Source: Escherichia phage vB_EcoD_Teewinot
Length of the DNA: 41,800 nt
Sequence record: NC_073053.1
Strand: one strand, 5' to 3'
This document shows, piece after piece, positions 24,665 through 38,708 of the stretch. A program made the translations under genes and the position numbers. Under the pieces are notes generated by a model. The model made no database searches and was not told the origin of the DNA. It saw only the letters and a program-made list of their open reading frames with translations. Positions within the stretch are counted from its first letter, which is position 1, and each line of letters opens with the position of its first letter.

Positions 24665-25094
24665 AGTCTGGATCTATCGCATACAGGGCGGTTTTCTTGC
24701 TGCTGGATAGCACGCGTTGGACTCTGGACATCTCCTCCTTACTGAGCTGTCGGCTATCGGAATAGTAGCTGCCGTTTGCACGCCACGCTATACGCACCAG
24801 TCCTTTCAGCGGTATCGAAGACTTGCGACCTTTGGGGCGCACGTACGCCTCGGCCCGTTTGCAATGCTCGCGCAAACCTTCTGCTGTGAGTCGATTTAGT
24901 GCGACGGTGCGCTGCATAATACCCATCAACTCATACAGCAGATCGAAGCGCTCCTCTAATTCCTTGCGCGCCTTCTCCTCGCCTTCATAGCTCGCCAGAT
25001 AGGTGTCTGCCAGCGCGCTAACACGTTCGGCCTGTTCGCGGGCTTCGAGGCATTGCGCGGCCCAGTAATTTTTCTCTTCTTGTAAAATTTTCAT
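24651..25094 (-). CDS. hypothetical protein
   Basis: 147 aa, helical charged N-terminal half; GGAG RBS. Confidence 0.45.
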   Translation of the reverse strand: MKILQEEKNYWAAQCLEAREQAERVSALADTYLASYEGEEKARKELEERFDLLYELMGIMQRTVALNRLTAEGLREHCKRAEAYVRPKGRKSSIPLKGLVRIAWRANGSYYSDSRQLSKEEMSRVQRVLSSSKKTALYAIDPDYAEE

Positions 25095-25337
25095 TTATTT
25101 AATCTCCGTAGTGCGGATTTCCTTGCGCGGAATAAATTTGCCGTCTTTCTCGACCCAGCAAGTTCCGAAACGCCATTGGGTATTACGGCCTGTTTGCTCG
25201 GCATATACGGTCTTGCATTCGTAGCGTTCCGTATAGTAAATAGCCGCGGTAGGTACGAAAATACAAACGGCAAACATGAGGGTGAGTATCACCCAAAATC
25301 GAAGGTCGCCGTCGTAGTCGAAAAATAATGATCTCAT
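25095..25337 (-). CDS. small membrane protein
   Basis: 80 aa with one clear TM helix (FWVILTLMFAVCIFVPTAAIYY). Confidence 0.45.
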   Translation of the reverse strand: MRSLFFDYDGDLRFWVILTLMFAVCIFVPTAAIYYTERYECKTVYAEQTGRNTQWRFGTCWVEKDGKFIPRKEIRTTEIK

Positions 25338-25351
25338 CGTGTTGTCTCCAG

Positions 25352-25383
25352 GTATTAAAAAGGGCGTCCAAACAGGACACCCT
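25352..25383 (-). terminator. minus-strand terminator
   Basis: On the minus strand AGGGTGTCC-tgttt-GGACGCCCT followed by TTTTAAT; the mismatch is a G-U wobble only in the minus-strand RNA. Confidence 0.5.
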
Positions 25384-25401
25384 TAATGTAATGCAACCAA
25401 T

Positions 25402-25725
25402 TTACGCATAAAAGTTTGGGTCGCGTGCAACGTCTACCAGGTAAAGGTTGCTTATGCGGTTGCCGTAGTGCCCTGGAGTGCGCTGGCGGCACACAACGGC
25501 GAAGCCTGGAGGGATTGTATTGCCCGTCTCAATAATCCATGCCACGCGTGCGCCAGACAGCGTCTTGCCGTTGCATTCGATGCGTGTCCCACCATCGGCA
25601 GTATTGATGTTGCCAATCTTGCATCCGGTGGACTTCAGACGGATGACTCCGGTTTTGCTGTCGTAGGTGAATAGCTGGTTAGTCATTGCGACCGAAAAAT
25701 CGATTGGTTCGTATGTAGCGTTCAT
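25402..25725 (-). CDS. HNH_3-like protein with degenerate catalytic motif
   Basis: 107 aa; ARVAWIIETGNTIPPGFAVVCRQRTPGHYGNRISNLYLV aligns by eye to the HRLVWE...G.IP.G..IDHINGD..DNR..NL pattern of HNH_3 homing endonucleases, but the DH of IDH is replaced by VC. Confidence 0.45.
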   Translation of the reverse strand: MNATYEPIDFSVAMTNQLFTYDSKTGVIRLKSTGCKIGNINTADGGTRIECNGKTLSGARVAWIIETGNTIPPGFAVVCRQRTPGHYGNRISNLYLVDVARDPNFYA

Positions 25726-25907
25726 TTTAAATTTTCCTCGTTAACCGCTATCGCGAAGCCGCGCGGAGTGAGCGACCGGATTAATTTTGTGCGGGCTGAT
25801 TTACCACCGAGGCGACTATACTGTTTCGAGTACCCTTTTTCAACGAAAACAGGTTTCTTCTCTGGCATACGGAAGCCGCTGCCGTCAAACAATGGCCAGA
25901 TTATCAT
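25722..25907 (-). CDS. hypothetical protein
   Basis: 61 aa ORF tightly packed between helicase and HNH-like gene with overlapping start/stop codons. Confidence 0.35.
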   Translation of the reverse strand: MIIWPLFDGSGFRMPEKKPVFVEKGYSKQYSRLGGKSARTKLIRSLTPRGFAIAVNEENLK

Positions 25908-27328
25908 TTGCGCGCCTTCTTAGCTTTCATGTATTCCATCAAGTCGTCCTGAATGTCTCGCTTACTGTCGCGACGCTCGGCGACCAATTCGTCCAGTGTC
26001 CCGCGAGCCTGGATAATGTAGACGAATACTGGTCGAGGGTGTCCGGCTTGCATCTGGCGAACCGGCCCGATACGTTCAACGATCTGCGAAAAGTGTTCAA
26101 AGTTCCAGGTGTCGGAGAAGATTGCCAGGTGATGACCGCCGTCCTGCAAGTTAAGGCCGTGGCCCGCCGATGCCGGGTGTGCAAACATGATGGGGATCTC
26201 GCCCCTGTTCCATGCTTCCATATCCTTATTGCCCTGCTTACCTTTACCCAACGCAACGCCGTGCGGGAATTTCTTCTTGAGACGTGCCAGATCATGCTTG
26301 TACTGGTAGGCAACGAGCAACGGTGCGCCGTTCAACTCCTCCACGATACTTTCCAGCGCGTCCAGTTTAGCGTCGTGAATTTTCACCCATTCGTCGGTGC
26401 GCTCGCCGTCTTCGTCGACCTTATACACGGCCCCGGAAGCAAGCTGAAGGCACTTAATAGTCTTCGAAGCAGCGTTCGCCGCCTCCACCGTTCCGCTTTC
26501 CAGTTCGGCAAATAGCTCCGCTTCGAATTGGTCATAAATCTTGCGGGCTTTTTTCGGCAGGTCCACAACAACCGGCGTATAGATTGGCTTGTCACACCCG
26601 AAGTATTCAGCCGCATCAACGGTTAGCGACACGTCGGACAGTCGTTGTTGTATTTCTTTCTCGGAGTTCTTAAGCGGGGCGTGCTGCATCGTGAAGCTGC
26701 CAGGCTTAACAGGCTTGCTAATAAACCAGCGGTCCGTGAACGCCTTATAGCTACTGCCGAGACGTTCGCCGCCGTCGACAAACCACGTCTGACCCCATAG
26801 GTCTTTCAGCCCGTTCGGTGCGGGTGTGCCAGTCAGGTTAATCCAGCGCTTGACGTGCTTATGTGCGATCGCTGCCAGCGCACGGGCGCGCTTACTTCCC
26901 TGCTTGCTTCTATAGCCTTTCAGCTTAGTCGATTCATCGGCAACAACGACCGTAAAGGGCCACTCGTCGCCGTAATAGTCGACCAGCCACTCAACCACAT
27001 CGTAGTTAACACAAACCACGTTAGCGTCGCTCTCAAGCGCCGCAATACGGTCCTTCTCCGGCCCGGTGCCGTCTACTACCAGCAAGGCTGGGAAGCGCCA
27101 TTTCTCCTGTTCCGGGGGCCATGTACCGGACGCAACGCGCAGCGGGGCCAGCACCAGTACGCGGTCATCCTGGTTGGACAGGATGCCAGTCTGGAACATT
27201 TTATTCAGCGCCCACATGGTCGCGCCGGTTTTACCCGACCCCATTGTCGCCCAAATATTGCAGCGCTTATGCTTGAGGATGAACGCGGTTATCAACTTCT
27301 GATATTCGCGACGTCGGAAACGTGCCAT
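25904..27328 (-). CDS. SNF2-family helicase
   Basis: Walker A TMGSGKTG, DExx box VVADESTK, C-terminal helicase domain. Start placed at ATG 27328 (MARFRRREYQ); the alternative ATG 27418 has no RBS. Confidence 0.75.
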   Translation of the reverse strand: MARFRRREYQKLITAFILKHKRCNIWATMGSGKTGATMWALNKMFQTGILSNQDDRVLVLAPLRVASGTWPPEQEKWRFPALLVVDGTGPEKDRIAALESDANVVCVNYDVVEWLVDYYGDEWPFTVVVADESTKLKGYRSKQGSKRARALAAIAHKHVKRWINLTGTPAPNGLKDLWGQTWFVDGGERLGSSYKAFTDRWFISKPVKPGSFTMQHAPLKNSEKEIQQRLSDVSLTVDAAEYFGCDKPIYTPVVVDLPKKARKIYDQFEAELFAELESGTVEAANAASKTIKCLQLASGAVYKVDEDGERTDEWVKIHDAKLDALESIVEELNGAPLLVAYQYKHDLARLKKKFPHGVALGKGKQGNKDMEAWNRGEIPIMFAHPASAGHGLNLQDGGHHLAIFSDTWNFEHFSQIVERIGPVRQMQAGHPRPVFVYIIQARGTLDELVAERRDSKRDIQDDLMEYMKAKKARK

Positions 27329-27514
27329 ATCTTTATTCCGCCTTTTTCCAGACTTCTGTTTCACTGTTCCAGTTCCTTTTTGTGGCGTCGTAGTTGGTGG
27401 CGTGTCCGATGTGCACACCGGTAGCCCGGTTTACATTCGCCCAGCTTGGTGAGTCGGTAGTGTTCTTTCATCGTCATGTCTCCCAAAAATGGCGGGACAA
27501 GCCCGCCGTATTAA

Positions 27515-27690
27515 TTATTTTTGTTCTGCACGGTAGCGGCGCTGCCGTTCGCGCTCTTTCTTATTGCGGCACGATTTGCACTCTGCCCGATACCCGTCTG
27601 GACTGCGCGCAGTCTTACCGGTGTATTTGTGGAACTGGGATAGCGGCTTTACACAGCCGCAATTACTACAACGTTTTTCTTCAATCATCT
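27515..27690 (-). CDS. small zinc-ribbon protein
   Basis: 58 aa from ATG 27690 (GAGGA RBS): CSNCGCVKPL...ECKSCRNKKERERQRRYR; the same module occurs twice in the N-terminus of the HNH protein at 28004-28606. Confidence 0.4.
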
Positions 27691-27728
27691 CTAAAATCCT
27701 CGATATGGCTAACCGGCACACTATACCG

Positions 27729-28007
27729 CTATGCGACCAATTCAGCAACCAATAAATCGCAGTCGGCTATGTTGTCGATAACGCGAACGTCCGCACCGCG
27801 GCGGGCCATTCGATCATGTTCACGTACTTGGTGCGGCTTCGGTTTTCCTCCGGGGCGCTTCACTTCGACGAACACTATTTTGCCGTTGATGATAATAATC
27901 AGGTCGGGAGCACCTGCGCGCCCCTCCCATGCCAGTTTTCTGCAGAATCCGCCGACCTCTTTAACCCGTTTCATAAGGTGACGCTGCACCTTGCCTTCTG
28001 GTGTCAT
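27729..28007 (-). CDS. VRR-NUC domain nuclease
   Basis: 92 aa from ATG 28007; DLIIIINGKIVFVEVKRPGGKPKPHQ is the characteristic D...E.K core with downstream Q; start overlaps the HNH stop (ATGA). Confidence 0.6.
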   Translation of the reverse strand: MTPEGKVQRHLMKRVKEVGGFCRKLAWEGRAGAPDLIIIINGKIVFVEVKRPGGKPKPHQVREHDRMARRGADVRVIDNIADCDLLVAELVA

Positions 28008-28606
28008 TGTCGGCTTTTCCTTACGGCAGCGATGGCAGGTCCGATAAACTTCTTCATTTCGTCCGGGGTAAACCGGTCTCCGCGGGCTATGTTGCACTCT
28101 ACGCAGCACGGCACGCAGTTATCTTTCGTATGGCCTACTGCGTTGTCGAGTCGGTCCGCGCCATTGTCGCCGGTGAATCCGCAGTATGCGCATGGTTGAG
28201 AAGTAAGGCGTAGCACGTCCTCGGTGGTTAGGTCGGTGTTTAACCCCTTCCTTTCGTCCGCCTTACGGTACTGAAAGAGCTTATAGTAAGCTCGGATCTC
28301 TGGTGTCCGGCGGTTGTACTCACGGCGGGACTTATTAGCGCACGACCGGCATTCTTTACGAATGTGTGACTGGCTTGCCAGGTTTCCGGGCCGGAAGTTT
28401 TCCGGCGTAAGCGGCTTACGTTCCCCGCACTGACGGCACGTTACGATCTCCCCGGTATACTCTCGCCATACTTCGCGCGGCGGCGCTCCTCTTTCCTTAT
28501 CTCGTCTCTCTTTCTTATACGCCGCCATGCATTTGGCGCACCACGACTGACCCTTGTTGAAAGCGGACTCATCTTTATCCGTATTACAACGCCCACAATG
28601 TTTCAT
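28004..28606 (-). CDS. HNH endonuclease with two N-terminal zinc-ribbon modules
   Basis: 200 aa from ATG 28606 (GGGGGGT RBS); C-terminal CAYCG...GHTKDNCVPCCVECNIARGD HNH motif; inserted between the polymerase and VRR-NUC genes. Confidence 0.65.
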   Translation of the reverse strand: MKHCGRCNTDKDESAFNKGQSWCAKCMAAYKKERRDKERGAPPREVWREYTGEIVTCRQCGERKPLTPENFRPGNLASQSHIRKECRSCANKSRREYNRRTPEIRAYYKLFQYRKADERKGLNTDLTTEDVLRLTSQPCAYCGFTGDNGADRLDNAVGHTKDNCVPCCVECNIARGDRFTPDEMKKFIGPAIAAVRKSRQ

Positions 28607-28673
28607 ATACCCCCCCGAAAAATAAAACGCCAGACAATATTGCCCGACGTTTCCGCTAAAAGCAACATTTCCG

Positions 28674-30965
28674 CTACTTGCGGTAGCGATACATACAATC
28701 ACCTTCTGCGGCAAGTGGGAAGCCTTTCGCCCAAATAGGCAGGTCGCACATCAGCGCGCAAAGCTCCTCTGTCGTGTAGTCGTCGGTGTCCGGCACTTCT
28801 GTGATCAATTCATCATGCACCGATAGAACGATTTCATATCCGGCGGCTTCAACGCCAGGCATGGACCACGCGAGAATATCGCGGCACAACGCCTGTACGA
28901 TGTTCTCCGTCAGTTTGCCGCCGTAGGTATACTGGAAGCCCCACTGGCGCGTCGTCTGATTCTCGCCCTGATATTTAATGCGTGTGCTGGTGCGCTTCTT
29001 GCCGGTGTCCTCGTCGATCTCGGTCGTGACCGACAGCGCGATGCCCGGGTAGCTCATGATGCGCCCGGACGGCAACTCAATTTTCAACCACCACCCCGCG
29101 GCGTTCGGATCGTCGCGCTCCTCGTCGAAGGTTGGGTCGTGCTTCGCCTTCGTGCGCACAATCTTGAGCGCTTTCCTACCGTCCGGGCGAACGTTAGCGC
29201 CAGCCCAGTATGCTTTGCCCGGATTGCGGATTGCACACAACACCGCGTCCTCAAGCTCGGCCCAAAAGGCGACCGTCTTCGGGTGAGCCTCGCGCCACAT
29301 GCGTTTGATTGCGTCACAAGTCAGCCATACGTTTTTCGGAAGTATGTATGTTGGGCGCTCGTCTTTCTTGCCTGGCTTCGGTGGGCGTTTCGCTTCGTTA
29401 ATACGAGCGTACTCATAACCGCGTTTAGCTGCCGCCCAAATGTGATCGGGGAATGTACCCTTCATCACGTCCGCCATAGCGTAAAGGTCGAGGCCCAGGT
29501 TTTTAGCGAACTGCAAGAACGCCGCGACGCCGCCACCATAGCCCAGTCCCAATTCACACGCCTTACCGATCTGGCGCAAGTCTTTGCGGTTGGCTTTAAT
29601 GTAGTCCGGGTCCAGGCCGAACATCTTACCGGCAGTCTCACAATAGATATCGCGACCGGCCCTAAACACCATTAGCGCGGTTTTCTCGCCCGCGATCCAG
29701 GCAAGTCCACGCCCTTCCACGTTGGAGTAGTCCGCTACGACAAACTTCTTGCCCTTAGCCGGGATAATGCACCCGCGAACGGTAGAGGCTGTTAGCTTAG
29801 ATATGTCATACGCCCAGTGCGCGGTCCCGCGTAACAGGGAATTGATGCCGTTGGTGAGCATGTGCGACCGGACCCAAAACGAGACGTCGCTTTCACCCTC
29901 GCGGCGTTTAATCTTCCCTTCGTGGTCGTCGCTGTACTCGCCACGTGCCAGGTTTTGAGGCTGGAAGCCTTTACCCGCCCAGCGCAGCGTGCGCTTTGCG
30001 CCACCATACTGAAGACACCCACGGCGGCGACCATCTGCGGATAAGCCGTTAACTAGCGGATTGTACTTAGTCGATGCCGTTGATGACGCACCGAGGCGCA
30101 TTTCGATAAGCGCTTTGCCTTCGTCGGGGAAGTCCGGGTCTTCAAGCAGGTCGTTAAGTGTGGATTTCTGCGCGTTGTGGATTGTGAACGCCGGGGCGAT
30201 ATCACGCAGGATTGGCAGGAAGTCATTGCCTGTCAGTTTACCACCAAATCGCTCCCAGGCTTCCTCCTTCAATTCTTCCTTATGCGCCTGCACCGCTTTG
30301 ATCGCGGCGTTCGCCAGGTCAACGTCCACATAGAAGCCGCGGTCGTTGATCAACTGGTCGATAAGCAGGATTTCATCTTCCTTCGGAGTATTACCCCAGT
30401 CCGGTATGCGCCAGTAGACCTCACGCATCGCGATAATATCCAGCGCGGCATATCGCAAAAATTTGGCCCATTCTTCAGGGTGAGTCTCGCGAGTGTAGCG
30501 GCGGATTTTGTAAGTCTTAGGGGTTGGCTTACAGAAGCGTTTGATCAGCGCCTTGCCAGCCTTATCCTTCGCGTGTTCTGCGTCAACGCCCAGCACCTGG
30601 CATTGCATGTCGAGACTACCGGGCAGCGCGTGGCGAAAGGCCATAATCATGGTGTCTTCGATCTGGCTTACCGGCAGGTCAATACCCCACTTCTCGCGAA
30701 TAACCAGGCGGTCAAACAGGAGGCCGTTAGCCATCACTATTTTTGCTTTCTTGCGGGAAACATGGCGGAGCGCCTTGCGCAGTTCACGCGGCATTGTGGG
30801 GGATTCAGTGCAATCCCATGTCTGCACGCGGCCCTCGTCGATGGCGTATGTGCAAATCATAATCTCGGTGGTTGGGTGCTCTGCGTAGGCGTACGCCCCA
30901 ACTTTCTTCAGGTCCACCCCGCTAAATGTCTCGGTGTCGAGAAACAGACGTTCGAAGTCTTTCAT
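28674..30965 (-). CDS. DNA polymerase, family A, with 3'-5' exonuclease domain
   Basis: 763 aa; N-terminal LFLDTETFSG (exo motif I-like), C-terminal SVHDELITEV (motif C) and K...YG region; GAGGATAAAG RBS. Confidence 0.85.
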   Translation of the reverse strand: MKDFERLFLDTETFSGVDLKKVGAYAYAEHPTTEIMICTYAIDEGRVQTWDCTESPTMPRELRKALRHVSRKKAKIVMANGLLFDRLVIREKWGIDLPVSQIEDTMIMAFRHALPGSLDMQCQVLGVDAEHAKDKAGKALIKRFCKPTPKTYKIRRYTRETHPEEWAKFLRYAALDIIAMREVYWRIPDWGNTPKEDEILLIDQLINDRGFYVDVDLANAAIKAVQAHKEELKEEAWERFGGKLTGNDFLPILRDIAPAFTIHNAQKSTLNDLLEDPDFPDEGKALIEMRLGASSTASTKYNPLVNGLSADGRRRGCLQYGGAKRTLRWAGKGFQPQNLARGEYSDDHEGKIKRREGESDVSFWVRSHMLTNGINSLLRGTAHWAYDISKLTASTVRGCIIPAKGKKFVVADYSNVEGRGLAWIAGEKTALMVFRAGRDIYCETAGKMFGLDPDYIKANRKDLRQIGKACELGLGYGGGVAAFLQFAKNLGLDLYAMADVMKGTFPDHIWAAAKRGYEYARINEAKRPPKPGKKDERPTYILPKNVWLTCDAIKRMWREAHPKTVAFWAELEDAVLCAIRNPGKAYWAGANVRPDGRKALKIVRTKAKHDPTFDEERDDPNAAGWWLKIELPSGRIMSYPGIALSVTTEIDEDTGKKRTSTRIKYQGENQTTRQWGFQYTYGGKLTENIVQALCRDILAWSMPGVEAAGYEIVLSVHDELITEVPDTDDYTTEELCALMCDLPIWAKGFPLAAEGDCMYRYRK

Positions 30966-31132
30966 TGCTTTATCCTCACTACGGCGTCAGCGCTGCCGAT
31001 CATGGAGAAGATGCCGTCTGACAGGGCGATCTCTTCGCCGTTGTTGCGAATCTCGGCAACTGTGAAATATTCCCCCAGTAGCTTGGACCATACTTGCATT
31101 CCGACTTTTACTTCGCTGGCTTTAATACGCAT
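30962..31132 (-). CDS. small hypothetical protein (absent from the ORF track)
   Basis: 56 aa (MRIKASEVKVGMQVWSKLLGEYFTVAEIRNNGEEIALSDGIFSMIGSADAVVRIKQ) with AGGA RBS; its stop overlaps the polymerase start (ATGA). Confidence 0.35.
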   Translation of the reverse strand: MRIKASEVKVGMQVWSKLLGEYFTVAEIRNNGEEIALSDGIFSMIGSADAVVRIKQ

Positions 31133-31144
31133 TTTTCATTGTCC

Positions 31145-31171
31145 TATTAAAAAGCCCGCATTAAGCGGGCT
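31145..31171 (-). terminator. minus-strand terminator after the SSB-like gene
   Basis: On the minus strand AGCCCGC-ttaat-GCGGGCT followed by TTTTAAT. Confidence 0.55.
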
Positions 31172-31190
31172 TGAATAGTGGGCTTTGCCC

Positions 31191-31973
31191 TTAACGGCGG
31201 CGACGTTTACGTGGCGCTTCGTCTTCGTCGTCGTCCTCATCTTCGTCATCGCGTGGCTTACGACGTTTGCGAGGTTTTTCATCTTCCTCATCGTCGTCGT
31301 CATCGCGGCGCTTGGATTTCTTGGACTTGCGCGGCTTGTCATCTTCATCATCGTCATCACGACGTTTTGACTTTTTGGACTTGCGCGGTGCTTCGTCTTC
31401 GTCGTCGTTGTCCAGGTCTTCATCGGAGCAAGAAGACCCGCCACCTCCGAAGGCTTCGCCGTCTTCACGGAATCGCAGACCCAGCAAGCCAGCCCCGAGA
31501 CCCTTGCCGTTGGTATTGTTCCATGCCCAAATATCAAGGGACACGTTGCAATAACAACCGGAGTAGATCTCCTGGCCTTCAATCTCGTCGCCGTCGATGG
31601 TCAGACCTTGTTCAGTCTGCTTCTCGCCGAGTGACGTTTGAATGATCGGCTGTTTGAACGATTTGGCGTTGATGTACAACATGCCTTCGAATTCTTCGGT
31701 TACTTCGTCGCGCTCGTCACCGTCGCGAACTGCGCATTCCTTAGAATCCTGGGCGTAGTGGCGGTCCATCCACTTATCAGCATTCTTCTCGGATTTCAGC
31801 TTGTCGGTGAGCACTGCGCGCGCTGCCGCTTCCACTTTGTCCACCTGCGGATCTTCTTTATCAAGGAGAATCACTGCACGGTATGCCGGTTTTTGTCCAT
31901 CCTGTTTAGGGGTATCACGTTCCCAAATTTTCAGGAAGCATACGCGCACATTTTTCAGGTTGACTTTAGCCAT
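31191..31973 (-). CDS. ssDNA-binding protein (T7 gp2.5-like/DUF2815-like, from memory) with charged repeat tail
   Basis: 260 aa from ATG 31973 (GAGGA RBS), beginning MAKVNLKNVRVCFLKIWE; the C-terminal third is a DDDEDDKPRKSKKSKRR-type repeat ending in RKRRRR; sits between polymerase and Cas4-like nuclease genes. Confidence 0.5.
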   Translation of the reverse strand: MAKVNLKNVRVCFLKIWERDTPKQDGQKPAYRAVILLDKEDPQVDKVEAAARAVLTDKLKSEKNADKWMDRHYAQDSKECAVRDGDERDEVTEEFEGMLYINAKSFKQPIIQTSLGEKQTEQGLTIDGDEIEGQEIYSGCYCNVSLDIWAWNNTNGKGLGAGLLGLRFREDGEAFGGGGSSCSDEDLDNDDEDEAPRKSKKSKRRDDDDEDDKPRKSKKSKRRDDDDDEEDEKPRKRRKPRDDEDEDDDEDEAPRKRRRR

Positions 31974-32063
31974 TTTCCAATTCCTCATTTTCACATGTAT
32001 CGGGGTTATTGTGAGCCACCCCGTCCGGCTTGGTTGCTAATTTACTTGGTTGCGCTTAAGCGG

Positions 32064-32306
32064 TCAAGCATTTTCATTAAAAAGATTTCTGGTAACGTAG
32101 TCGGTAGCGTTCTCGATCCAGCTTAATGGCGGGCGGTCGATATTCTTCGCCACCCAATCGGCGGCAGCTTTGCTATAACCGTCATCCCGCCAGCGGGTCG
32201 GATGCCGAATCATCCACGCCACCATTAACACGCCATGCACACAATGCAGGATAAAGCCCAGCGCGCCGATAACAAACATCAATAATATTGCGAATACTTT
32301 ATTCAT
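32064..32306 (-). CDS. small membrane protein
   Basis: 80 aa with two hydrophobic helices (FAILLMFVIGALGFILHCV and GVLMVAWMI). Confidence 0.45.
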   Translation of the reverse strand: MNKVFAILLMFVIGALGFILHCVHGVLMVAWMIRHPTRWRDDGYSKAAADWVAKNIDRPPLSWIENATDYVTRNLFNENA

Positions 32307-33729
32307 TGCTTAAGTCCTCGTCAGTAGCTACAGACCACGCAGGGCGCGGGTCGTCGATGGGTGCTAATACCGGTTTAGCCGGTGCGCGCGTTATTATATC
32401 ACACAACTTTGCCCACACTTTCGGCTTCTCGTCCTTCAGTACCTTCTCGGCATCAGTAGGGCTGAGTAATGTTTCTTTGTACATAACATCGCGCTTGATC
32501 CGGGCCTTCGTGAAGATTTCAATCACTTCGCTTTCGTCCGCCCACTTGCGGATCCCTTCCTTACCGGCAACCATTTTGAGGCCCAGCGATTCGCCTTCGC
32601 CAGCCATAACCGCCTTGAATACCGCGGACTCTATAGCCTTGATGTGCTGGCGCATTGCGTCTAAACCTTCATATGCCTTGCGCAGTTCTGCGGCGGTCAT
32701 AGCGCCTGGGGCCGCTTCTTTCTTACCACGCTTCGCACGTCGTGCCGCTTTGCGGGCTTCGCGGGTCATATTGCGATCGTGATTGGCGCATTCTTCCTCT
32801 GTCGCAATACTCACGTCGTCGCCCAGGTCTTCGTCTGTTGCCGTTGGTGGGGTCATCGTGTCGATTGCGGCCTTAGCGCGGGCGCTACACTGATCCGCAA
32901 ATCGGCACCACTGACACGCATCAACGCTCGGTCTGAAGTCGGCACGGGTGAGTCCCTTTTTGCCGCGGGCGTACGCTTCCAGGGCGGCGATAGCACGCTT
33001 GGACGCAAACTTCGCGAATATCTCCAGGGCTTCTACCGAAATATCCCACTCCGACGCCCCGCCGCAATACGGCTGGAAGATAACCAGGCGCACGGTCGTA
33101 ATGTCGTACATAGTTTTCAGCTTGCGCAGCAGGCCGAGCGCGTACAACATAAGCTGTTTGTTTTCTTTCGCCTCGACCTTATGTCGTCCCGTCTTCAGGT
33201 CGCCAACAATCAGCATGTACGTGCCGTCGGTCTTCTTCATGACCATAACCATATCGGCAGTACCGAACGTCTTAACCAGGTTGCCGTCGATCTCGAAGCC
33301 TGAGTGAAGGACGCGGGTCAGATCGGCGCGCATCTCAAGCTGAACAAACTCCGCCACTTCGAGGAGCGGTCGCCAGTGGTCGATGTACGCGTCGCACTGT
33401 TTCACCATGTCGTCGTTGACCAGTACGCCGCCTTTCGGTGCTTTCGGGTGGGCCTTTACTGGCCCCTTGCCTTCGTTCTCGACGTAGCACCCTTTATACG
33501 TCTTCGCGGTTATCAGCTTCTCACCGGCGATAATGCGGTTTAGCACGACCTCTGATACGGTGTGCATACTCGTACCGTTAATCGCCGCTTGCCCGGATTC
33601 GTTCGGGATATCTTTTTCCACCACCAGGGCGGCAGGGCAACCCATCCATTTTTTAGCACCGGACGGCCCGAGTAATGAGTGTTCCGTGTTGCTACCGGAT
33701 TGCGTTTTACGTTTTGGTTTAATCGCCAT
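32299..33729 (-). CDS. Cas4/RecB-like PD-(D/E)xK nuclease (DUF2800-like)
   Basis: 476 aa; central GDLKTG...K region and a C-terminal cysteine cluster (C-x2-C-x5-C in SVDACQWCRFADQCS) as in Fe-S-containing Cas4-like nucleases; conserved neighbourhood with SSB-like and polymerase genes. Confidence 0.6.
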   Translation of the reverse strand: MAIKPKRKTQSGSNTEHSLLGPSGAKKWMGCPAALVVEKDIPNESGQAAINGTSMHTVSEVVLNRIIAGEKLITAKTYKGCYVENEGKGPVKAHPKAPKGGVLVNDDMVKQCDAYIDHWRPLLEVAEFVQLEMRADLTRVLHSGFEIDGNLVKTFGTADMVMVMKKTDGTYMLIVGDLKTGRHKVEAKENKQLMLYALGLLRKLKTMYDITTVRLVIFQPYCGGASEWDISVEALEIFAKFASKRAIAALEAYARGKKGLTRADFRPSVDACQWCRFADQCSARAKAAIDTMTPPTATDEDLGDDVSIATEEECANHDRNMTREARKAARRAKRGKKEAAPGAMTAAELRKAYEGLDAMRQHIKAIESAVFKAVMAGEGESLGLKMVAGKEGIRKWADESEVIEIFTKARIKRDVMYKETLLSPTDAEKVLKDEKPKVWAKLCDIITRAPAKPVLAPIDDPRPAWSVATDEDLSNE

Positions 33730-33896
33730 TATTCCACCCGTGTAAACTTGACAATTACATATTTCACATTAGCCAGGCCCGCTTTTTCGACTCGGCGCTT
33801 AACTTCATTTTGCGCGTCCACAAAGCAATTGCTTGCGAACAATAAAAGAAGTGTGATCGTTTAATTCGTGGCAAGTTGCCATGACGAAGAATTTCA

Positions 33897-34148
33897 TTAT
33901 TTTGTCTCCCAGCGGTCGATTGTTTTTGCTTCGGATGCAACTGCGAAGCGAACATATTCCAGATTGGAATCCGCCCAAATATAAAAGTCGGGGTTAGTAA
34001 AGGTGGTGCGCTTAATTTGCGCGGGGGTGTTACGGCGTTTATCTATTACGGCAACGCGTGACTGAAAGCTGCCGATGCGTTCGAATAGCCAATAGTACGG
34101 GCGCTGGTCGCGGGAGTCCACCGCCTCGATTAGCGTGAAGCGTGCCAT
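33897..34148 (-). CDS. hypothetical protein
   Basis: 83 aa ORF with GAGGACGAG RBS immediately downstream of a terminator. Confidence 0.5.
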   Translation of the reverse strand: MARFTLIEAVDSRDQRPYYWLFERIGSFQSRVAVIDKRRNTPAQIKRTTFTNPDFYIWADSNLEYVRFAVASEAKTIDRWETK

Positions 34149-34159
34149 TGTCTCGTCCT

Positions 34160-34190
34160 CTAAAAATAGGCCCGCAGATTAGCGGGCCGG
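34160..34190 (-). terminator. minus-strand terminator after the acidic protein gene
   Basis: On the minus strand GGCCCGC-taatct-GCGGGCC followed by TATTTTTAG. Confidence 0.5.
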
Positions 34191-34196
34191 AATACA

Positions 34197-34640
34197 TTAA
34201 TCTTCCAGTTCGAAATAGGTTTCGACGATTTCTTTTAAATCTTTGTGGAAGTCTTCAACGTCGTCGTCTTCCAGCTTGGCGATGGATTTAATTTCGAACG
34301 CTTCCAGCAGATCATCAAATTCGTCGTTCGCGTCGTCATCGTCACCACCGGCAATAATCGCGGCATACTGTTTGATTTCGTCGCGCATCTCTGCCAGCGG
34401 ATCGGCATCTTTCTTACCTTTGCCTTTCGCCGGTGCTTTTTTAGACTTAGCCGGTTTTTCGTCGTCGTCATCTTCTACGACTTCTTTTTTAGCCGGTTTT
34501 TCGTCGTCATCTTCGACAACTTCTTTTTTGGCCTTAGACGGCTTCTTGTCTTCCTGCTTACCAACGGTTTCATAATGCTTAGCGATGGTTTCCAGTGCTA
34601 CTACTCCGCGAGTGATCAGGTTTACGATTTGCTCAAACAT
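34197..34640 (-). CDS. acidic repeat protein (candidate early anti-defence/DNA-mimic protein)
   Basis: 147 aa from ATG 34640 (GGAG RBS); runs of D/E (EDDDE, EDDDDE, GGDDDDANDEFDD, EDDDVED) and a duplicated KKEVVEDDD(D)EKPAK unit; first gene after the leftward promoter, with its own terminator. Confidence 0.6.
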   Translation of the reverse strand: MFEQIVNLITRGVVALETIAKHYETVGKQEDKKPSKAKKEVVEDDDEKPAKKEVVEDDDDEKPAKSKKAPAKGKGKKDADPLAEMRDEIKQYAAIIAGGDDDDANDEFDDLLEAFEIKSIAKLEDDDVEDFHKDLKEIVETYFELED

Positions 34641-34836
34641 GGTATATCTCCGATTGGTTAAGTTTAGGTGTCGGCAGTTAACTTCGTCGGTGGCCTTAAC
34701 ATATTGCCAGGTTACGCGTTCTCCCGTTCGGGTAGTGGACCTGGTTATATAATCACGGTTGGGAATCCTGACACTTCGATCCGGCCCCTGCGTTGCCCCT
34801 CTCCAGTTTGCGTCCTGCATCCTGTCGACGGAGTGA

Positions 34837-34866
34837 ATGATAGATTGGTTGCAGGATGGGTGTCAA
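34837..34866 (-). promoter_or_regulatory. leftward sigma70-like promoter with ATTGGTTGCA in the spacer
   Basis: On the minus strand TTGACA (34866-34861), 18-bp spacer containing the motif, TATCAT (34842-34837). Confidence 0.4.
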
Positions 34867-34877
34867 CAACTAATTTC

Positions 34878-34913
34878 AAAAAAAAAAGCGCCGAGGCAAA
34901 ATGCACCGGCGCT
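34878..34913 (-). terminator. strong minus-strand terminator inside the divergent control region
   Basis: On the minus strand AGCGCCG-13 nt loop-CGGCGCT followed by a T10 run. Confidence 0.55.
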
Positions 34914-34943
34914 AACCAATAAGAGACAATGAGACGGGAATTA

Positions 34944-34971
34944 TTATTACACGCGTGCGCGCCCGTTTCAA
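34944..34971 (-). promoter_or_regulatory. leftward promoter candidate for a short terminated transcript
   Basis: On the minus strand TTGAAA (34971-34966), 16-bp spacer, TAATAA (34949-34944); the terminator at 34878-34913 lies about 30-60 nt downstream. Confidence 0.3.
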
Positions 34972-34983
34972 TATCCAAAGGAC

Positions 34984-35012
34984 TTGACACCTTGTGGTTT
35001 TAGGTGTAGTTT
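34984..35012 (+). promoter_or_regulatory. rightward sigma70-like promoter for the HTH/primase operon
   Basis: TTGACA (34984-34989), 17-bp spacer, TAGTTT (35007-35012); followed by inverted repeat TTGGT-cattA-ACCAA (35015-35029) and AGGAGA RBS. Confidence 0.45.
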
Positions 35013-35043
35013 CATTGGTCATTAACCAACAGGAGACTGAATT

Positions 35044-35373
35044 ATGAATATCAAAGAAGCAATTGAAGTGTTATCTAATGCAATCCGCGGCGAAGCGGGT
35101 AAATCCTGGTATTACACAAATGCGGTGGATACTCTGTTATTTGAAGTGTCCAGATTATCGCGTGCTGAGAAGGAGCTTACCGCGAAGCTGGAATTGCTCA
35201 ACGGCACGGCAGCAAGCAAGCTGCAAAAGCACAATGAAGAAATGGAAGAATACAAAAAACAGGTTATCCGTTTGCGCGCCGAGGGCAAATCCTGGGCGAT
35301 GATTGCCGAGTTGACCGGAATTAATCAGAGCACAGTGCGCTCCTGGGTACGCAATAATAAAACTTCTAAGTAA
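35044..35373 (+). CDS. HTH DNA-binding regulator
   Basis: 109 aa; C-terminal GKSWAMIAELTGINQSTVRSWV is a typical helix-turn-helix; first gene of the rightward operon. Confidence 0.65.
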   Translation: MNIKEAIEVLSNAIRGEAGKSWYYTNAVDTLLFEVSRLSRAEKELTAKLELLNGTAASKLQKHNEEMEEYKKQVIRLRAEGKSWAMIAELTGINQSTVRSWVRNNKTSK

Positions 35374-35383
35374 GGCCACGGCA

Positions 35384-37648
35384 ATGAACTTAATTAAATT
35401 CGCTGTAACACGACCCGCTAAAAAAGGCGAAAAAGCCAGGGCGGAAAACTTCCAGATGACCACCGATGAGTTTTTCGAATTTATTAATGATGCGAAAGAA
35501 ATATCCTCGGTGCATATCAACAAGACGGAAGATAAAGCGGAGTATGCGCGCCGCAAGCGTAAGGCTGATGGTATTGTGGCTTATACCCGTGACGGCTTAC
35601 GCCGCAAGACCAGTGCCGTGGACCGCTCGATCCTGTTCTTCGATATCGACCGTACCGACACCCGCACCCTGCGCCGCTGCCGTAAGGCTTTCATCGACGC
35701 GGGGCTGGAGCACGTATTTCACACCACAACCGGCGACCGCCACCCGCTGAAAGGCGGCACGCGTTGCGCTCGATTCCTGGTACTCACGGACAAGCCTGTA
35801 CCGGCTGAAGACCTGGGCCGTGTCCAGTATGCGCTATTACACCAACTGGGTCTGTCAGATGTGGACTTCGACGATTGCACGAAAGACACAAACCGCCTGA
35901 TGTACCTGCCACACCAGCAGTCTGTCGTTAAGTGCCACTACGGCAAGCGCGCCCGCGTCCGTCGTCTGCTCCGCCTGGCTGACAAGCTGGGAGTCGAGAA
36001 AGAGGAAGTACGCCGCGAACTGACCCAGGGCGATGATGGTGTGGCGGACGGTATTCTGGATTGGTGCTTCCAGGCGGGATTCGAACCGCTGTCGTCTGGT
36101 CGTGGTTATGAAGTGCCATGCCCGAACGAACACCTGCACAGCGGCGAAGGGTCCACCGCTATCTTGGTTAAGGATGGCGAGATCCGTTTCAAGTGTATGC
36201 ACACCGGCAACGAGTGTTGCTCGGAGCTGAACAGACACCAGCACCTGGCGCTACGTCTTATCGGGATCCCGGACCACCTGAACGTCGAGCCACACAACAT
36301 GTCCCGTAAGCAAATCGCCGCCATCCTCCCCGGACTGGACGACGAGGAAGTGGAATCGTGCTATGAACATATCGTTGATGCGGTCGGAGACGGCGACGAG
36401 TACGGCGTGTGTACTGATGCAGACCTGGACAACGAGCCGGTCGCACTGTTCAGTAAGCACGACCCGATCATCGAAGGCCTGGTCAACTTCAAATCGACCT
36501 GGTATCTCGCCGGTGAGTCGAACATCGGTAAATCGTTCTACGTGCTGGGGCAAATGGGTGCGGTTGCCGCGGGGATTCCGTTCGGCGGTGCGAAGGTCGT
36601 CCAGTCCCATTGCTTCTATTTCGACGCGGAAGGTGGCGAAGCCTCCAACCAGCGTAAGGAAGCATTGCAGATCAAATACGAGCACGACCTCGACAAGCTG
36701 CACATTATCGATCTGCAATCACGCGGCTGGGATATCACCAGCAAATCCGGCTTGCGTGAAGTTATCAGCTTCATCAACCGCACCGCTAACGGCGAACCGG
36801 TTGGCCTGGTGGCGTTCGACTCACTCAACCAGACGGTTGCGCTGCGGTCCGCCGATGCTAAACCGTTCGACGAGAACAACGCCAGCGATATGGGTGAAGT
36901 GGTCAAAGCGCTGAAGGCCATCGCGGAAAATACAGGCGGCAGTGCTGGCGTCATCCACCACCCGGCGAAGGGTGCAAACGGCAGCAGATCCCCCCGCGGG
37001 TCCGGCGCGCTGCATGGTGCTGTAGATTCCGCGTTCTTCCTGGAGCAACCGGACGACAATCAGCCCGGACAACTTAACCTGTATCACGAGAAGGCACGTA
37101 ACGGCATCAAGCAAGCGCCGCGCGGCTTCGTCCTGCTCAAGTGCAAGGTTAAGGTGGATCTCCGCAAGTCCGAGGCGTTCGAGGCGCACCAGTCCACCAG
37201 CACCGGGCCAGACTTCGGCGACGTGGTTGCCGGATGGGACGTCAAGCCGATTGCCTCCACGCCACGCGACGAGACTCTCTACCTCGTACCGGTCGCCCTG
37301 GCACCGTTCGCTATAGAACAGGCGAAGGCGGCTGGCAAGGCCGCGGTTAAGGACGAGAATGCCGCAGGACCGCGCAACGAAAAAGAGAAAGTGCTTTATG
37401 CGGCACTGGAAAAACTGATGGAAGATAACCCGGACCATACCGGATTCAGCAAATCGGCAATTGTCCGCCAGGCGGGATTGGCAAAAGGTGGAACATCTAC
37501 GAAGGCAATAGACGATATGGTTGAGCGCGGAGTGTTAGGTTTTTATACCGATCCGCACACCGGGGCCATCTATGGGTCGTCGAATATAGTCATCAAAACG
37601 AATATACCCATCACGCTTTCTGCGACCGATGACGACCTGAAAGATTAA
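35384..37648 (+). CDS. primase-helicase (AEP-type primase domain plus P-loop ATPase)
   Basis: 754 aa; N-terminal SILFFDIDRTD (hhhDhD primase-polymerase motif) and DDCTKDTNRLMYLP, a Cys/His zinc-binding segment, then Walker A GESNIGKS. Confidence 0.7.
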   Translation: MNLIKFAVTRPAKKGEKARAENFQMTTDEFFEFINDAKEISSVHINKTEDKAEYARRKRKADGIVAYTRDGLRRKTSAVDRSILFFDIDRTDTRTLRRCRKAFIDAGLEHVFHTTTGDRHPLKGGTRCARFLVLTDKPVPAEDLGRVQYALLHQLGLSDVDFDDCTKDTNRLMYLPHQQSVVKCHYGKRARVRRLLRLADKLGVEKEEVRRELTQGDDGVADGILDWCFQAGFEPLSSGRGYEVPCPNEHLHSGEGSTAILVKDGEIRFKCMHTGNECCSELNRHQHLALRLIGIPDHLNVEPHNMSRKQIAAILPGLDDEEVESCYEHIVDAVGDGDEYGVCTDADLDNEPVALFSKHDPIIEGLVNFKSTWYLAGESNIGKSFYVLGQMGAVAAGIPFGGAKVVQSHCFYFDAEGGEASNQRKEALQIKYEHDLDKLHIIDLQSRGWDITSKSGLREVISFINRTANGEPVGLVAFDSLNQTVALRSADAKPFDENNASDMGEVVKALKAIAENTGGSAGVIHHPAKGANGSRSPRGSGALHGAVDSAFFLEQPDDNQPGQLNLYHEKARNGIKQAPRGFVLLKCKVKVDLRKSEAFEAHQSTSTGPDFGDVVAGWDVKPIASTPRDETLYLVPVALAPFAIEQAKAAGKAAVKDENAAGPRNEKEKVLYAALEKLMEDNPDHTGFSKSAIVRQAGLAKGGTSTKAIDDMVERGVLGFYTDPHTGAIYGSSNIVIKTNIPITLSATDDDLKD

Positions 37649-37960
37649 ATTTTGCGCGCATTGGGAATTCCCATATCGCTAAAGATTAAATTTTGCGCGC
37701 ATTGGTTGCCATTTTGGGAATTCCCATATCGCTAAAGATTAAATTTTGCGCGCATTGGTTGCCGATATGGGAATTCCCATATCGCTAAAGATTAAATTTT
37801 GCGCGCATTGGTTGCCATTTTGGGAATTCCCATATCGCTAAAGATTAAATTTTGCGCGTATTGGTTGCCATTTTGGGAATTCCCATATCGCTAAAGATTA
37901 AATTTTGCGCGTATTGGTTGCCATTTTGGGTGTTTTTAACTGGTCGTATTGGTTGCCGTG
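37640..37960. repeat. iteron array, about six tandem 53-bp repeats (candidate origin of replication)
   Basis: Unit AAAGATTAAATTTTGCGCGCATTGGTTGCCATTTTGGGAATTCCCATATCGCT at 37681, 37734, 37787, 37840, a 41-bp first copy at 37640 (12-bp deletion) and a degenerate sixth; each has the palindrome TGGGAATTCCCA, extended to GATATGGGAATTCCCATATC in the third copy. Starts in the last codons of the primase-helicase gene. Confidence 0.75.
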
Positions 37961-37995
37961 TAGGGTGATTATTATGAATAGTTATGCAATAAAAC

Positions 37996-38169
37996 TGCAT
38001 AAAGTAAGCGGGACAAAAAGCGGGACAAACAAGGGGCGGGACAAAGCGGGACAGCACCCCCGTCCCGCCCCGGATGGCGCGGCTTTCAGAGGAGCGGGAC
38101 AGCGGGACAGCACCCCAGTCTTTCAGACTAGACGGGGGTCAGTGGCCCCCCTCGTCTGAGACTGAATAA
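37996..38169. repeat. 174-bp GCGGGACA-array element, copy B
   Basis: Same length as copy A (11140-11313); identical over the first 60-odd bp and the last 70-odd bp except one A/G difference, with a diverged roughly 40-bp centre. Confidence 0.8.
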
Positions 38170-38307
38170 AATCCCAATACACGGCAGCATAGTGAAAATT
38201 GCGTCGAGGGTAGAACTCGGCAACCAATGCGGGTTGGATAATGGAGAGTGGGAAATGCAGCCACCGCGGATAGCGATCAACTTTTTCATGCGCATGATTA
38301 ATATTGG

Positions 38308-38336
38308 TTGCATTCGTGCCAGCACCCTGCTATATT
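38308..38336 (+). promoter_or_regulatory. sigma70-like promoter built from two ATTGGTTGCA copies
   Basis: TTGCAT (38308-38313, from motif copy 1), 17-bp spacer, TATATT (38331-38336), then motif copy 2 (38334-38343), GAGGA RBS and ATG 38367. Confidence 0.45.
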
Positions 38337-38366
38337 GGTTGCACACCAACAAGAGGACTGCACAAA

Positions 38367-38708
38367 ATGAAATTTCCAGTAACTATCACCGGCAACGACC
38401 ACGGCACTTACGAGAGTACCAAAATGAAAGCATTAATCTGGAATTACACAATGGCGATGGCAAAGCTGAACGAAGCGAAAGCGCTGAACGGCAACATCGA
38501 CCGCGCGGCACATATCGTAATACTGGCACAGCAGGCAATCATGTGCGCGCTCGACGGCATGGATGAACTGGCGAAGGCAATTCACGAATACGCGCAGGCA
38601 TTCTCCCGTGAGCGCCTGGCATATCGCTTCGGGATCGGCGAGACGGCAGTGACAAACGTCGCCCGGATTAAAGCCCAGCGCGAACTATTCGCCCAGCTTG
38701 CGAAATAA
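38367..38708 (+). CDS. hypothetical protein
   Basis: 113 aa from ATG 38367 (GAGGA RBS); the track start at 38304 lies inside the promoter. Confidence 0.55.
   Translation: MKFPVTITGNDHGTYESTKMKALIWNYTMAMAKLNEAKALNGNIDRAAHIVILAQQAIMCALDGMDELAKAIHEYAQAFSRERLAYRFGIGETAVTNVARIKAQRELFAQLAK

Follow-up and report, generated by a model that had tools for sequence, protein, structure and literature searches.

A conserved acidic protein encoded ahead of the nuclease, SSB, and PolA genes of Dhillonvirus and Guernseyvirinae phages, and its possible role as a hub of the replication module

The subject of this work is a small acidic protein encoded on the minus strand of Escherichia phage vB_EcoD_Teewinot (sequence record NC_073053.1; the term window refers below to the whole stretch of 41,800 nucleotides (nt) that was analysed), a phage of the genus Dhillonvirus whose locus region is 90–97% identical to many Dhillonvirus genomes. 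Our analyses show that the gene for this protein is a core gene, and not a variable accessory gene, which is under strong purifying selection and which stands ahead of a set of replication and recombination genes (viz. [quoted passage not shown] We tentatively propose that the protein acts together with the SSB and the replisome as an acidic hub or chaperone, probably an oligomeric one, and that its acidic head contacts basic surfaces on the SSB tail or on enzymes of this module.

A gene for a strongly acidic repeat protein at positions 34197–34640 had been claimed in a first-pass annotation made from the sequence alone. This gene is present, its coordinates are exact, and its main signals are as follows.

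34197..34640, minus strand: coding sequence (CDS) of the acidic protein, ATG at 34640..34638, stop codon at 34199..34197, 147 amino acids (aa)
34648..34651, minus strand: Shine-Dalgarno sequence GGAG, conserved, 7 nt 5' of the ATG of the acidic gene

The open reading frame (ORF) at 34640..34197 (minus strand), which translates to MFEQIVNLITRGVVALETIAKHYETVGKQEDKKPSKAKKEVVEDDDEKPAKKEVVEDDDDEKPAKSKKAPAKGKGKKDADPLAEMRDEIKQYAAIIAGGDDDDANDEFDDLLEAFEIKSIAKLEDDDVEDFHKDLKEIVETYFELED (MFEQ...ELED), is confirmed as a genuine and constrained gene, and its start (GGAG-ATG-TTTGAGCAA) is kept in all 19 aligned Dhillonvirus loci. The CDS given for the gene in GenBank is longer (207 aa, P9598_gp47, "hypothetical protein") and begins at ATG 34820, and in several homologue records calls of 207–239 aa start at the equivalent of this ATG. 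We have rejected this N-terminal extension because the segment that carries ATG 34820 is cleanly absent from 4 of the 19 aligned genomes (L007, L008, L009, and L017) and because it corresponds to a structured RNA that is described below; hence, ATG 34640 is the true start and the annotated 207 aa start is wrong. The strong acidity that had been claimed for the protein is borne out by its composition (D+E = 45, K+R = 25, net charge −20, isoelectric point 4.44). The motif KKEVVEDDD is present in two copies, at aa 38 and aa 51, and Tandem Repeats Finder reports a 39-bp tandem unit at 34447–34533 (2.1 copies, 87% matches).

Two AlphaFold2 runs, which were based on alignments of 24 and 74 sequences and which agree with each other, divide the protein into three parts.

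34563..34640, minus strand: predicted N-terminal amphipathic helix, aa 1–26, the most conserved part of the family
34407..34562, minus strand: predicted disordered K/E/D/P/A polyampholyte linker, aa 27–78, which holds the 39-bp tandem unit
34200..34406, minus strand: predicted acidic C-terminal three-helix bundle, aa 79–147, net charge −20 in Teewinot

The helix of the N-terminal segment is predicted to span aa 2–24/26 with a predicted local distance difference test score (pLDDT) of about 53–68; the corresponding values are about 40–45 for the linker, which has a net charge of +1 in Teewinot, and about 82–91 for the three helices of the C domain (aa 81–98, 102–114, and 125–143). In 71 full-length members of the family, the N segment is about 30 aa long with a net charge of about −1, the linker ranges from 18 to 99 aa with a mean net charge of −1 and 47% charged residues, and the C domain consists of about 67 aa with a median net charge of −15 and 32% D+E. 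Because the C domain is this acidic throughout the family while the linker is charge-balanced, acidity is a conserved property of the folded C domain. The description of the protein as an acidic repeat protein therefore holds in part: the duplicated unit exists, but the excess of D and E lies in the C domain and not in the repeat-bearing linker. Among 19 Dhillonviruses the repeat unit occurs in one or two copies, usually in a longer 26 aa version, in proteins of 142–180 aa, and the Teewinot protein is a trimmed variant.

The N helix contains the near-invariant positions L8, R11, V13, A15, E17, and A20, and R86 is the other near-invariant position of the family. The hydrophobic moment of this helix is 1.38 as compared to 0.59 ± 0.30 in shuffled sequences (P = 0.009), its heptad a, d, e, and g positions are hydrophobic, and the pattern would suit a helix that forms bundles or docks onto another protein. 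Within Dhillonvirus, the ratio of nonsynonymous to synonymous substitution rates takes values of 0.074 in the N helix and 0.035 in the C domain, with synonymous rates of 0.24–0.53.

The family is widely distributed. The C domain was found in 166 Dhillonvirus-type phage records, and a distant homologue, Shemara gp52, retrieves 490 records, mostly from Salmonella and Escherichia phages of the Guernseyvirinae, where the carriers belong to Jerseyvirus, Kagunavirus, and Cornellvirus. An exhaustive profile search of 1.84 billion cluster representatives yielded 65 members (31–245 aa, fragments included) that all share this layout and show no fusion to an informative domain, and no homologue was present in 72,556 plasmids. 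The protein has a full-length match to phrog_3127, a family of unknown function (E = 1.5e-44, residues 1–147 against profile positions 1–178), whereas sequence and profile searches of Pfam, NCBIfam, and the PDB gave sub-threshold low-complexity matches only, and no fold link to any solved protein was found. Foldseek searches of BFVD retrieved family members only, including "Gp46" of Edwardsiella phage eiAU and a protein of Salmonella phage MB78 that is named "13.88 kDa late protein" (UniProt Q9T1Z8, E = 2.8e-4), to which the RAST annotation of that name can be traced. The MB78 protein and phrog_3127 are true homologues that contribute names only, and the unconfirmed label "late" conflicts with the host-type promoter found in Teewinot.

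The position of the gene is also conserved. The leftward order in Teewinot is acidic protein, terminator, 83 aa protein, a variable stretch, DUF2800 nuclease, 80 aa protein, SSB, further genes, and PolA. The two neighbours of greatest interest are the following.

32299..33729, minus strand: DUF2800 PD-(D/E)XK nuclease, the invariant downstream neighbour of the acidic-protein family
31191..31973, minus strand: Enc34/gp2.5-type SSB, with its own promoter-like site at 32067..32039

In all lineages that were examined, the acidic gene lies 0–4 small ORFs upstream of the DUF2800 nuclease, which is usually followed by the Enc34/gp2.5-type SSB and PolA. The linkage of acidic gene and nuclease was seen in these genomes and contigs.

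Cornellvirus Shemara
Jerseyvirus SB3
Serratia phage Tsm2
Salmonella phage SE1
Kagunavirus K1ind1, where the neighbour is a nuclease-sized ORF
Five metagenomic contigs with distant members of the family

This linkage persists while the opposite flank varies between an AAA_25 helicase-primase, a UvrD helicase, and an N6/N4 methyltransferase. In Teewinot, the divergent flank consists of a 109 aa helix-turn-helix protein and the AAA_25 helicase-primase.

Published proteomic data for the Dhillonvirus EE09 provide information on the expression of the protein. Only four phage proteins (viz. CDS29, CDS40, CDS56, and CDS61) were detected in infected cells at 25 min, and CDS56 is missing from the 24 proteins detected in cell-free lysates (PMC10673088). 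Locus-tag mapping identifies CDS56 as the homologue of the acidic protein, while gene position and a mass of 30.7 kDa identify CDS61 as the SSB, so that these two are the replication-module proteins among the four detected in infected cells. Its detection in infected cells but not in lysates argues that the acidic protein is abundant and is not a virion protein; virion association had been named beforehand as speaking against a DNA-mimic role, and none is apparent in EE09.

The acidic protein and the SSB also resemble each other in their disordered regions. SSB tails of related phages contain acidic runs followed by K/R-P-rich runs, and the linker of the acidic protein has the same block pattern (e.g., EDDDDEKPAKSKKA). 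The C-terminal tail of the Teewinot SSB (31191–31400, minus strand) is a blocky polyampholyte with about three copies of DDDDEDDKPRKSKKSKRR and the end RKRRRR. When Smith-Waterman scores of linkers against SSB tails from seven lineages were double-centred, i.e., when row and column effects were removed, the residuals of the cognate pairs were positive in all seven (permutation P = 0.0004), which suggests concerted evolution of the two disordered regions. Gene conversion between the two at the DNA level was considered and rejected; recent conversion is unlikely because the two genes share only GAC/GAT-type repeats.

Transcription of the acidic gene is framed by two conserved signals.

34837..34866, minus strand: sigma-70-like promoter TTGACA-18-TATCAT, 11 of 12 consensus matches
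34161..34188, minus strand: intrinsic terminator, GGCCCGC-loop-GCGGGCC at 34188..34169 (7-bp all-GC stem), then the T-run TATTTTT

The promoter (34866..34837 in the direction of transcription) is the top sigma-70-like match within 25000–38500, a region in which such matches are rarer than in shuffled controls, and it is conserved in 19 Dhillonvirus loci. The terminator is kept in 19 of 19 aligned Dhillonvirus loci, and its loop is inverted in some of them (CTAATCTG vs. CAGATTAG) while the stem remains intact. The ATG of the next gene (83 aa, phrog_4965) lies 13 nt beyond the T-run, and downstream of the terminator no promoter-like site was found on the minus strand before 32067..32039, just upstream of the SSB gene. 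Since no promoter-like site of their own precedes them, the 83 aa gene and the DUF2800 nuclease gene need read-through of the terminator, which is most likely, on the basis of this arrangement, a leaky attenuator that favours the acidic protein over the downstream enzymes. Thus, of the earlier claim that the gene is monocistronic, the promoter and the dedicated terminator are real, but a strictly monocistronic unit overstates the case. The promoter-like site of the SSB gene (TTGACC-17-TAAATT at 32039–32067, minus strand) lies directly 5' of that gene. For Borvo and retron-Eco8, the main text of a preprint places escape mutations in PolA and SSB, and, according to a published note, retron-Eco8 escape mutants of related phages map to the SSB "promoter or coding sequence"; the site at 32067..32039 fits this mapping.

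The proposal of a hub or chaperone draws together the fixed position at the head of the module, the purifying selection, the conserved helix, the tunable tether, the co-abundance with the SSB, and the matched disordered blocks. Beyond the architecture, expression, and genomic context, we infer the mechanistic steps, viz. that the protein oligomerises, which partner it binds, and what it does to this partner. The N-terminal amphipathic helix would oligomerise the protein or dock it onto a partner, the polyampholyte linker would act as a flexible tether of adjustable length, and the acidic three-helix head would bind basic surfaces. The K/R-rich blocks of the gp2.5-type SSB tail are candidate targets of the head, as are the clefts with which the DUF2800 nuclease or the polymerase binds DNA; at such surfaces the head may compete with nucleic acid in a DNA-mimic-like manner. 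Proteins of the module would in this way be kept soluble, recruited, or regulated, and the acidic protein could supply in trans part of the role of the acidic C-terminal tail of T7 gp2.5, while the strong host-type promoter and the leaky terminator would lead to a high ratio of the acidic protein to the downstream enzymes. A chaperone-like role, which the first-pass annotation had listed as an alternative, fits the genomic context better than the anti-restriction role that it had preferred.

Several known systems resemble the acidic protein in part. It shares with the acidic C-terminal tails of T7 gp2.5 and gp4, and with the linker and acidic tip of E. coli SSB, the combination of an acidic element and a flexible linker suited to electrostatic contacts in the replisome; it differs from them in that its acidic element is folded into a domain and carried by a polypeptide of its own, and most SSB tails of these phages terminate in basic residues, unlike the purely acidic tail of T7 gp2.5. 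PopZ and the ribosomal protein bL12 are hub proteins with a layout of helix, linker, and small domain, and the acidic protein resembles both in its helix, disordered linker, small domain, acidity, and implied multivalent tethering. This likeness is an analogy of architecture only, and no profile match of the acidic protein to PopZ (DUF2497) or bL12 was found.

A number of observations weigh against the proposal. The three-helix bundle is a generic fold whose prediction says nothing specific on function, and the abundance and early expression of the protein are equally compatible with a decoy directed against the host. The raw linker-versus-tail scores rank the cognate tail first in only 2 of the 7 lineages, and the similarity between linkers and tails is of low complexity and could have its source in lineage-specific composition. 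In Kagunavirus K1ind1 the acidic protein is present, yet no SSB is annotated in the interval from the nuclease-sized ORF to PolA. In phage Bas14, the DUF2800 protein, which is active as an AdnA-like nuclease and acts as a trigger of a type IX retron, is dispensable (bioRxiv 10.64898/2026.07.14.737667), and hence part of the module is not essential.

The strongest competing explanation, because it accounts for the synteny equally well, is a protector of the Gam/gp5.9 type, in which the acidic head would mimic DNA and block RecBCD or another end-processing nuclease; linear phage DNA would then be protected, and the DUF2800 nuclease and the gp2.5-type annealing protein would be free for recombination. 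The succession of an acidic gene, an exonuclease gene, and an SSB/annealing gene parallels the gene orders gam-bet-exo of lambda and 5.9-6 of T7, and the acidic protein is, like lambda Gam and T7 gp5.9, acidic and helical, encoded beside exonuclease and annealing-protein genes, and transcribed ahead of them. Its small size, its host-type promoter, the resemblance of the nuclease to the end-resection nuclease AdnA, and the lack of a recognisable Gam nearby (the neighbour annotated as "Gam" matches helix-turn-helix families only) are likewise consistent with such a protector. We nevertheless regard it as unlikely. No sequence or fold similarity to lambda Gam (PF06064), Mu Gam, or T7 gp5.9 and no profile or fold match to Abc2 was found; the long tether, which Gam and gp5.9 do not have, and the strong conservation of the N helix set the protein apart from the RecBCD inhibitors that are known; the copy number of RecBCD is low, and its inhibitor would not require an abundance similar to that of the SSB; and the literature searched contained no evidence of the retron-Ec48 type. 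More doubtful still is a proposal in which the acidic protein and the SSB form an electrostatic, multivalent replication/recombination compartment or condensate during ordinary infection by a siphophage, with the head as the trans equivalent of the acidic gp2.5 tail, or, in a variant, in which the protein represents a tethered DNA mimic of a new structural class and protects phage recombination intermediates.

The first-pass annotation had interpreted the protein as a DNA mimic comparable to T7 Ocr, i.e., as a broad decoy of the Ocr/ArdA style for type I restriction-modification, BREX, or other DNA-binding defences. The protein does share with T7 Ocr (gp0.3) and ArdA a small size, very high acidity (net charge −20), signals of a promoter for the host RNA polymerase, and abundance in infected cells without presence in the virion; a DNA-mimic-like surface on the C domain is possible. 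Beyond charge and promoter, nothing ties it to Ocr-type anti-restriction, and this role appears improbable. Profiles of Ocr (PF08684) and ArdA (PF07275) gave no match at E <= 10 for the window protein or at E <= 0.1 for 35 family members, and no fold match was found either. The Ocr dimer is elongated, folded throughout, and a copy of bent B-form DNA, whereas the predicted acidic part is a tethered bundle of roughly 67 aa, which is joined through a disordered tether of roughly 50 aa to a conserved N helix. A DNA-like charge pattern had been suggested as a structural check, and this bundle lacks an elongated surface with the shape of B-form DNA. The gene is also a conserved core member of the replication module and not a variable accessory gene at the leading end of the genome. 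The T7 logic of DNA that enters the cell first is not implied by the observed gene order, and plasmids are without a homologue. The anti-defence and trigger proteins described for Dhillonvirus are other genes, and each was excluded as the identity of the acidic gene: Ksap1 is a 74 aa protein encoded between methyltransferase and phosphatase genes, anti-Tmn is ORF35 of SM_S22, and the RAZR trigger is the portal. A host-takeover factor, which would sequester an abundant basic host protein (e.g., H-NS, HU, or Fis) or fill the DNA channel of RNA polymerase like sigma-70 region 1.1, has in our view an equally low probability. The abundance of the protein fits an abundant target, and an acidic three-helix bundle brings to mind sigma-70 region 1.1 and AbbA, which are acidic helical DNA mimics; however, no fold match to sigma region 1.1, Arn, gp5.5, or AbbA was found, and such a role would leave unexplained why the gene is so tightly syntenic with those of the nuclease, SSB, and PolA.

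The family is a core gene without an assigned role in more than 600 sequenced phages of Dhillonvirus and the Guernseyvirinae, among them the model phages Bas14/TheodorHerzl and SECphi18, which are tractable, and a large number of Salmonella and E. coli phages that were isolated as candidates for therapy or biocontrol. Assigning its role would fill a gap in the widespread module of DUF2800 nuclease, gp2.5-type SSB, and PolA. If the protein is a hub for the SSB and replisome, it would represent a new way in which the function of an acidic tail is provided in trans; should it prove to be a tethered DNA mimic, it would represent a new architecture among anti-nuclease proteins.

The segment mistaken for the N-terminal extension of the protein is a well-supported, separate candidate for a new class of cis-acting phage RNA.

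34668..34831, minus strand: structured leader RNA, 164 nt, at the 5' end of the acidic-gene transcript, facultative in Dhillonvirus
L029:1476-1635, L030:1488-1650, L042:9072-9229, L036:4902-5063, and others: copies of the leader RNA elsewhere

The element begins a few nt from the expected transcription start, ends 27 nt before the ATG of the acidic gene, and is missing in about 4 of the 19 Dhillonviruses. Its long blocks, in the order GGAGAGGRGYAACGCAGGGGCYKGATCGWAGTGTCAGGATTCCCAACCGTGA, GAACGC, and AGGCYACCGACGAAG, recur in near-identical form in three other, unrelated phage contexts (viz. Warwickvirus tunus, BUCT618-like phages, and a group of 39–52-kb phage-like contigs). In each context a sigma-70-like −10 hexamer stands before the RNA and a small unrelated gene after it; the leader RNA is not restricted to the acidic gene. 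With a covariance model that was derived from the copies in Dhillonvirus, each locus that bears the element yielded exactly one match, with 216.7 bits for the window copy and 85–98 bits for the other types, and there was no match in Guernseyvirinae loci or in Dhillonviruses without the element.

In the leader alignment, 98.0% of the cells hold standard pairs as compared to 24–46% when the partners are slid by 1–3 columns, compensatory changes are present in 16 of 30 pairs, and the covariation score is 0.437 as compared to 0.128 ± 0.011 in shuffles (0 of 500 reach 0.437), although these counts are somewhat biased because the alignment was fitted to the model. An independent anchor-based count recovers these helices as well; one stem has nine complementary strand pairs in its favour, and the closing stem has at least six. 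RNAalifold applied to a MAFFT alignment had mis-registered the variable stems and was replaced by the alignment guided by the covariance model. The minimum free energy of the whole leader is unremarkable, no match in Rfam 15 was obtained even at E <= 10, and no copies were found in 5,426 complete E. coli genomes; 59 matches to the leader pattern from metagenomes and bacterial genomes lacked the other conserved motifs and were set aside as probably due to chance. Possible roles of the leader RNA are those of a put-like processive antiterminator, a 5' mRNA stabiliser, or a translational element. Terminator-like hairpins lie 0.6–2.2 kb downstream of it in most contexts, an observation that does not discriminate for or against an antiterminator.

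Some minor features of the region surrounding the acidic gene were also recorded. The 109 aa protein of the divergent flank (35044–35373, plus strand) is annotated in relatives as "DNA recombination nuclease inhibitor gamma" ("Gam"), "transposase", or "resolvase"; it matches solely helix-turn-helix families of the HTH_23 and sigma-70 region 4 types, and probably acts as a small regulator of transcription at the divergent promoter region. The stretch between the 83 aa gene and the nuclease gene (33729–33900) has the lowest conservation of the region (65–74% column identity), and the Teewinot sequence has stop codons that interrupt a 59 aa ORF annotated at the equivalent position in Opt212 and bob. 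In L011 and L019, an additional ORF of about 41 aa (MDYEMRIMLDFIAENWAAFTAFCEERGDDPDEVYKQLGGED) lies between the stop codon of the acidic gene and its terminator (equivalent to about 34190–34200 of the window); it is bordered by a duplicated GGAAGAYTAATAT junction and resembles a small moron-type insertion. Lastly, just upstream of the main promoter of the acidic gene, a conserved mini transcription unit is present at 34878–34971 (minus strand), which consists of a promoter-like sequence (TTGAAA-17-AATAAT with a TG extension, 34971..34943) and a hairpin (GCGCCG...CGGCGC, 34912..34888) that is followed by a run of ten T at 34887..34878. The conservation of this region exceeds that of the flanking genes, the stem carries a compensatory change (CCCCG/CGGGG) in the relative L017, and, judging from these signals, the unit could encode a small RNA of 55–60 nt or serve as an insulating terminator.

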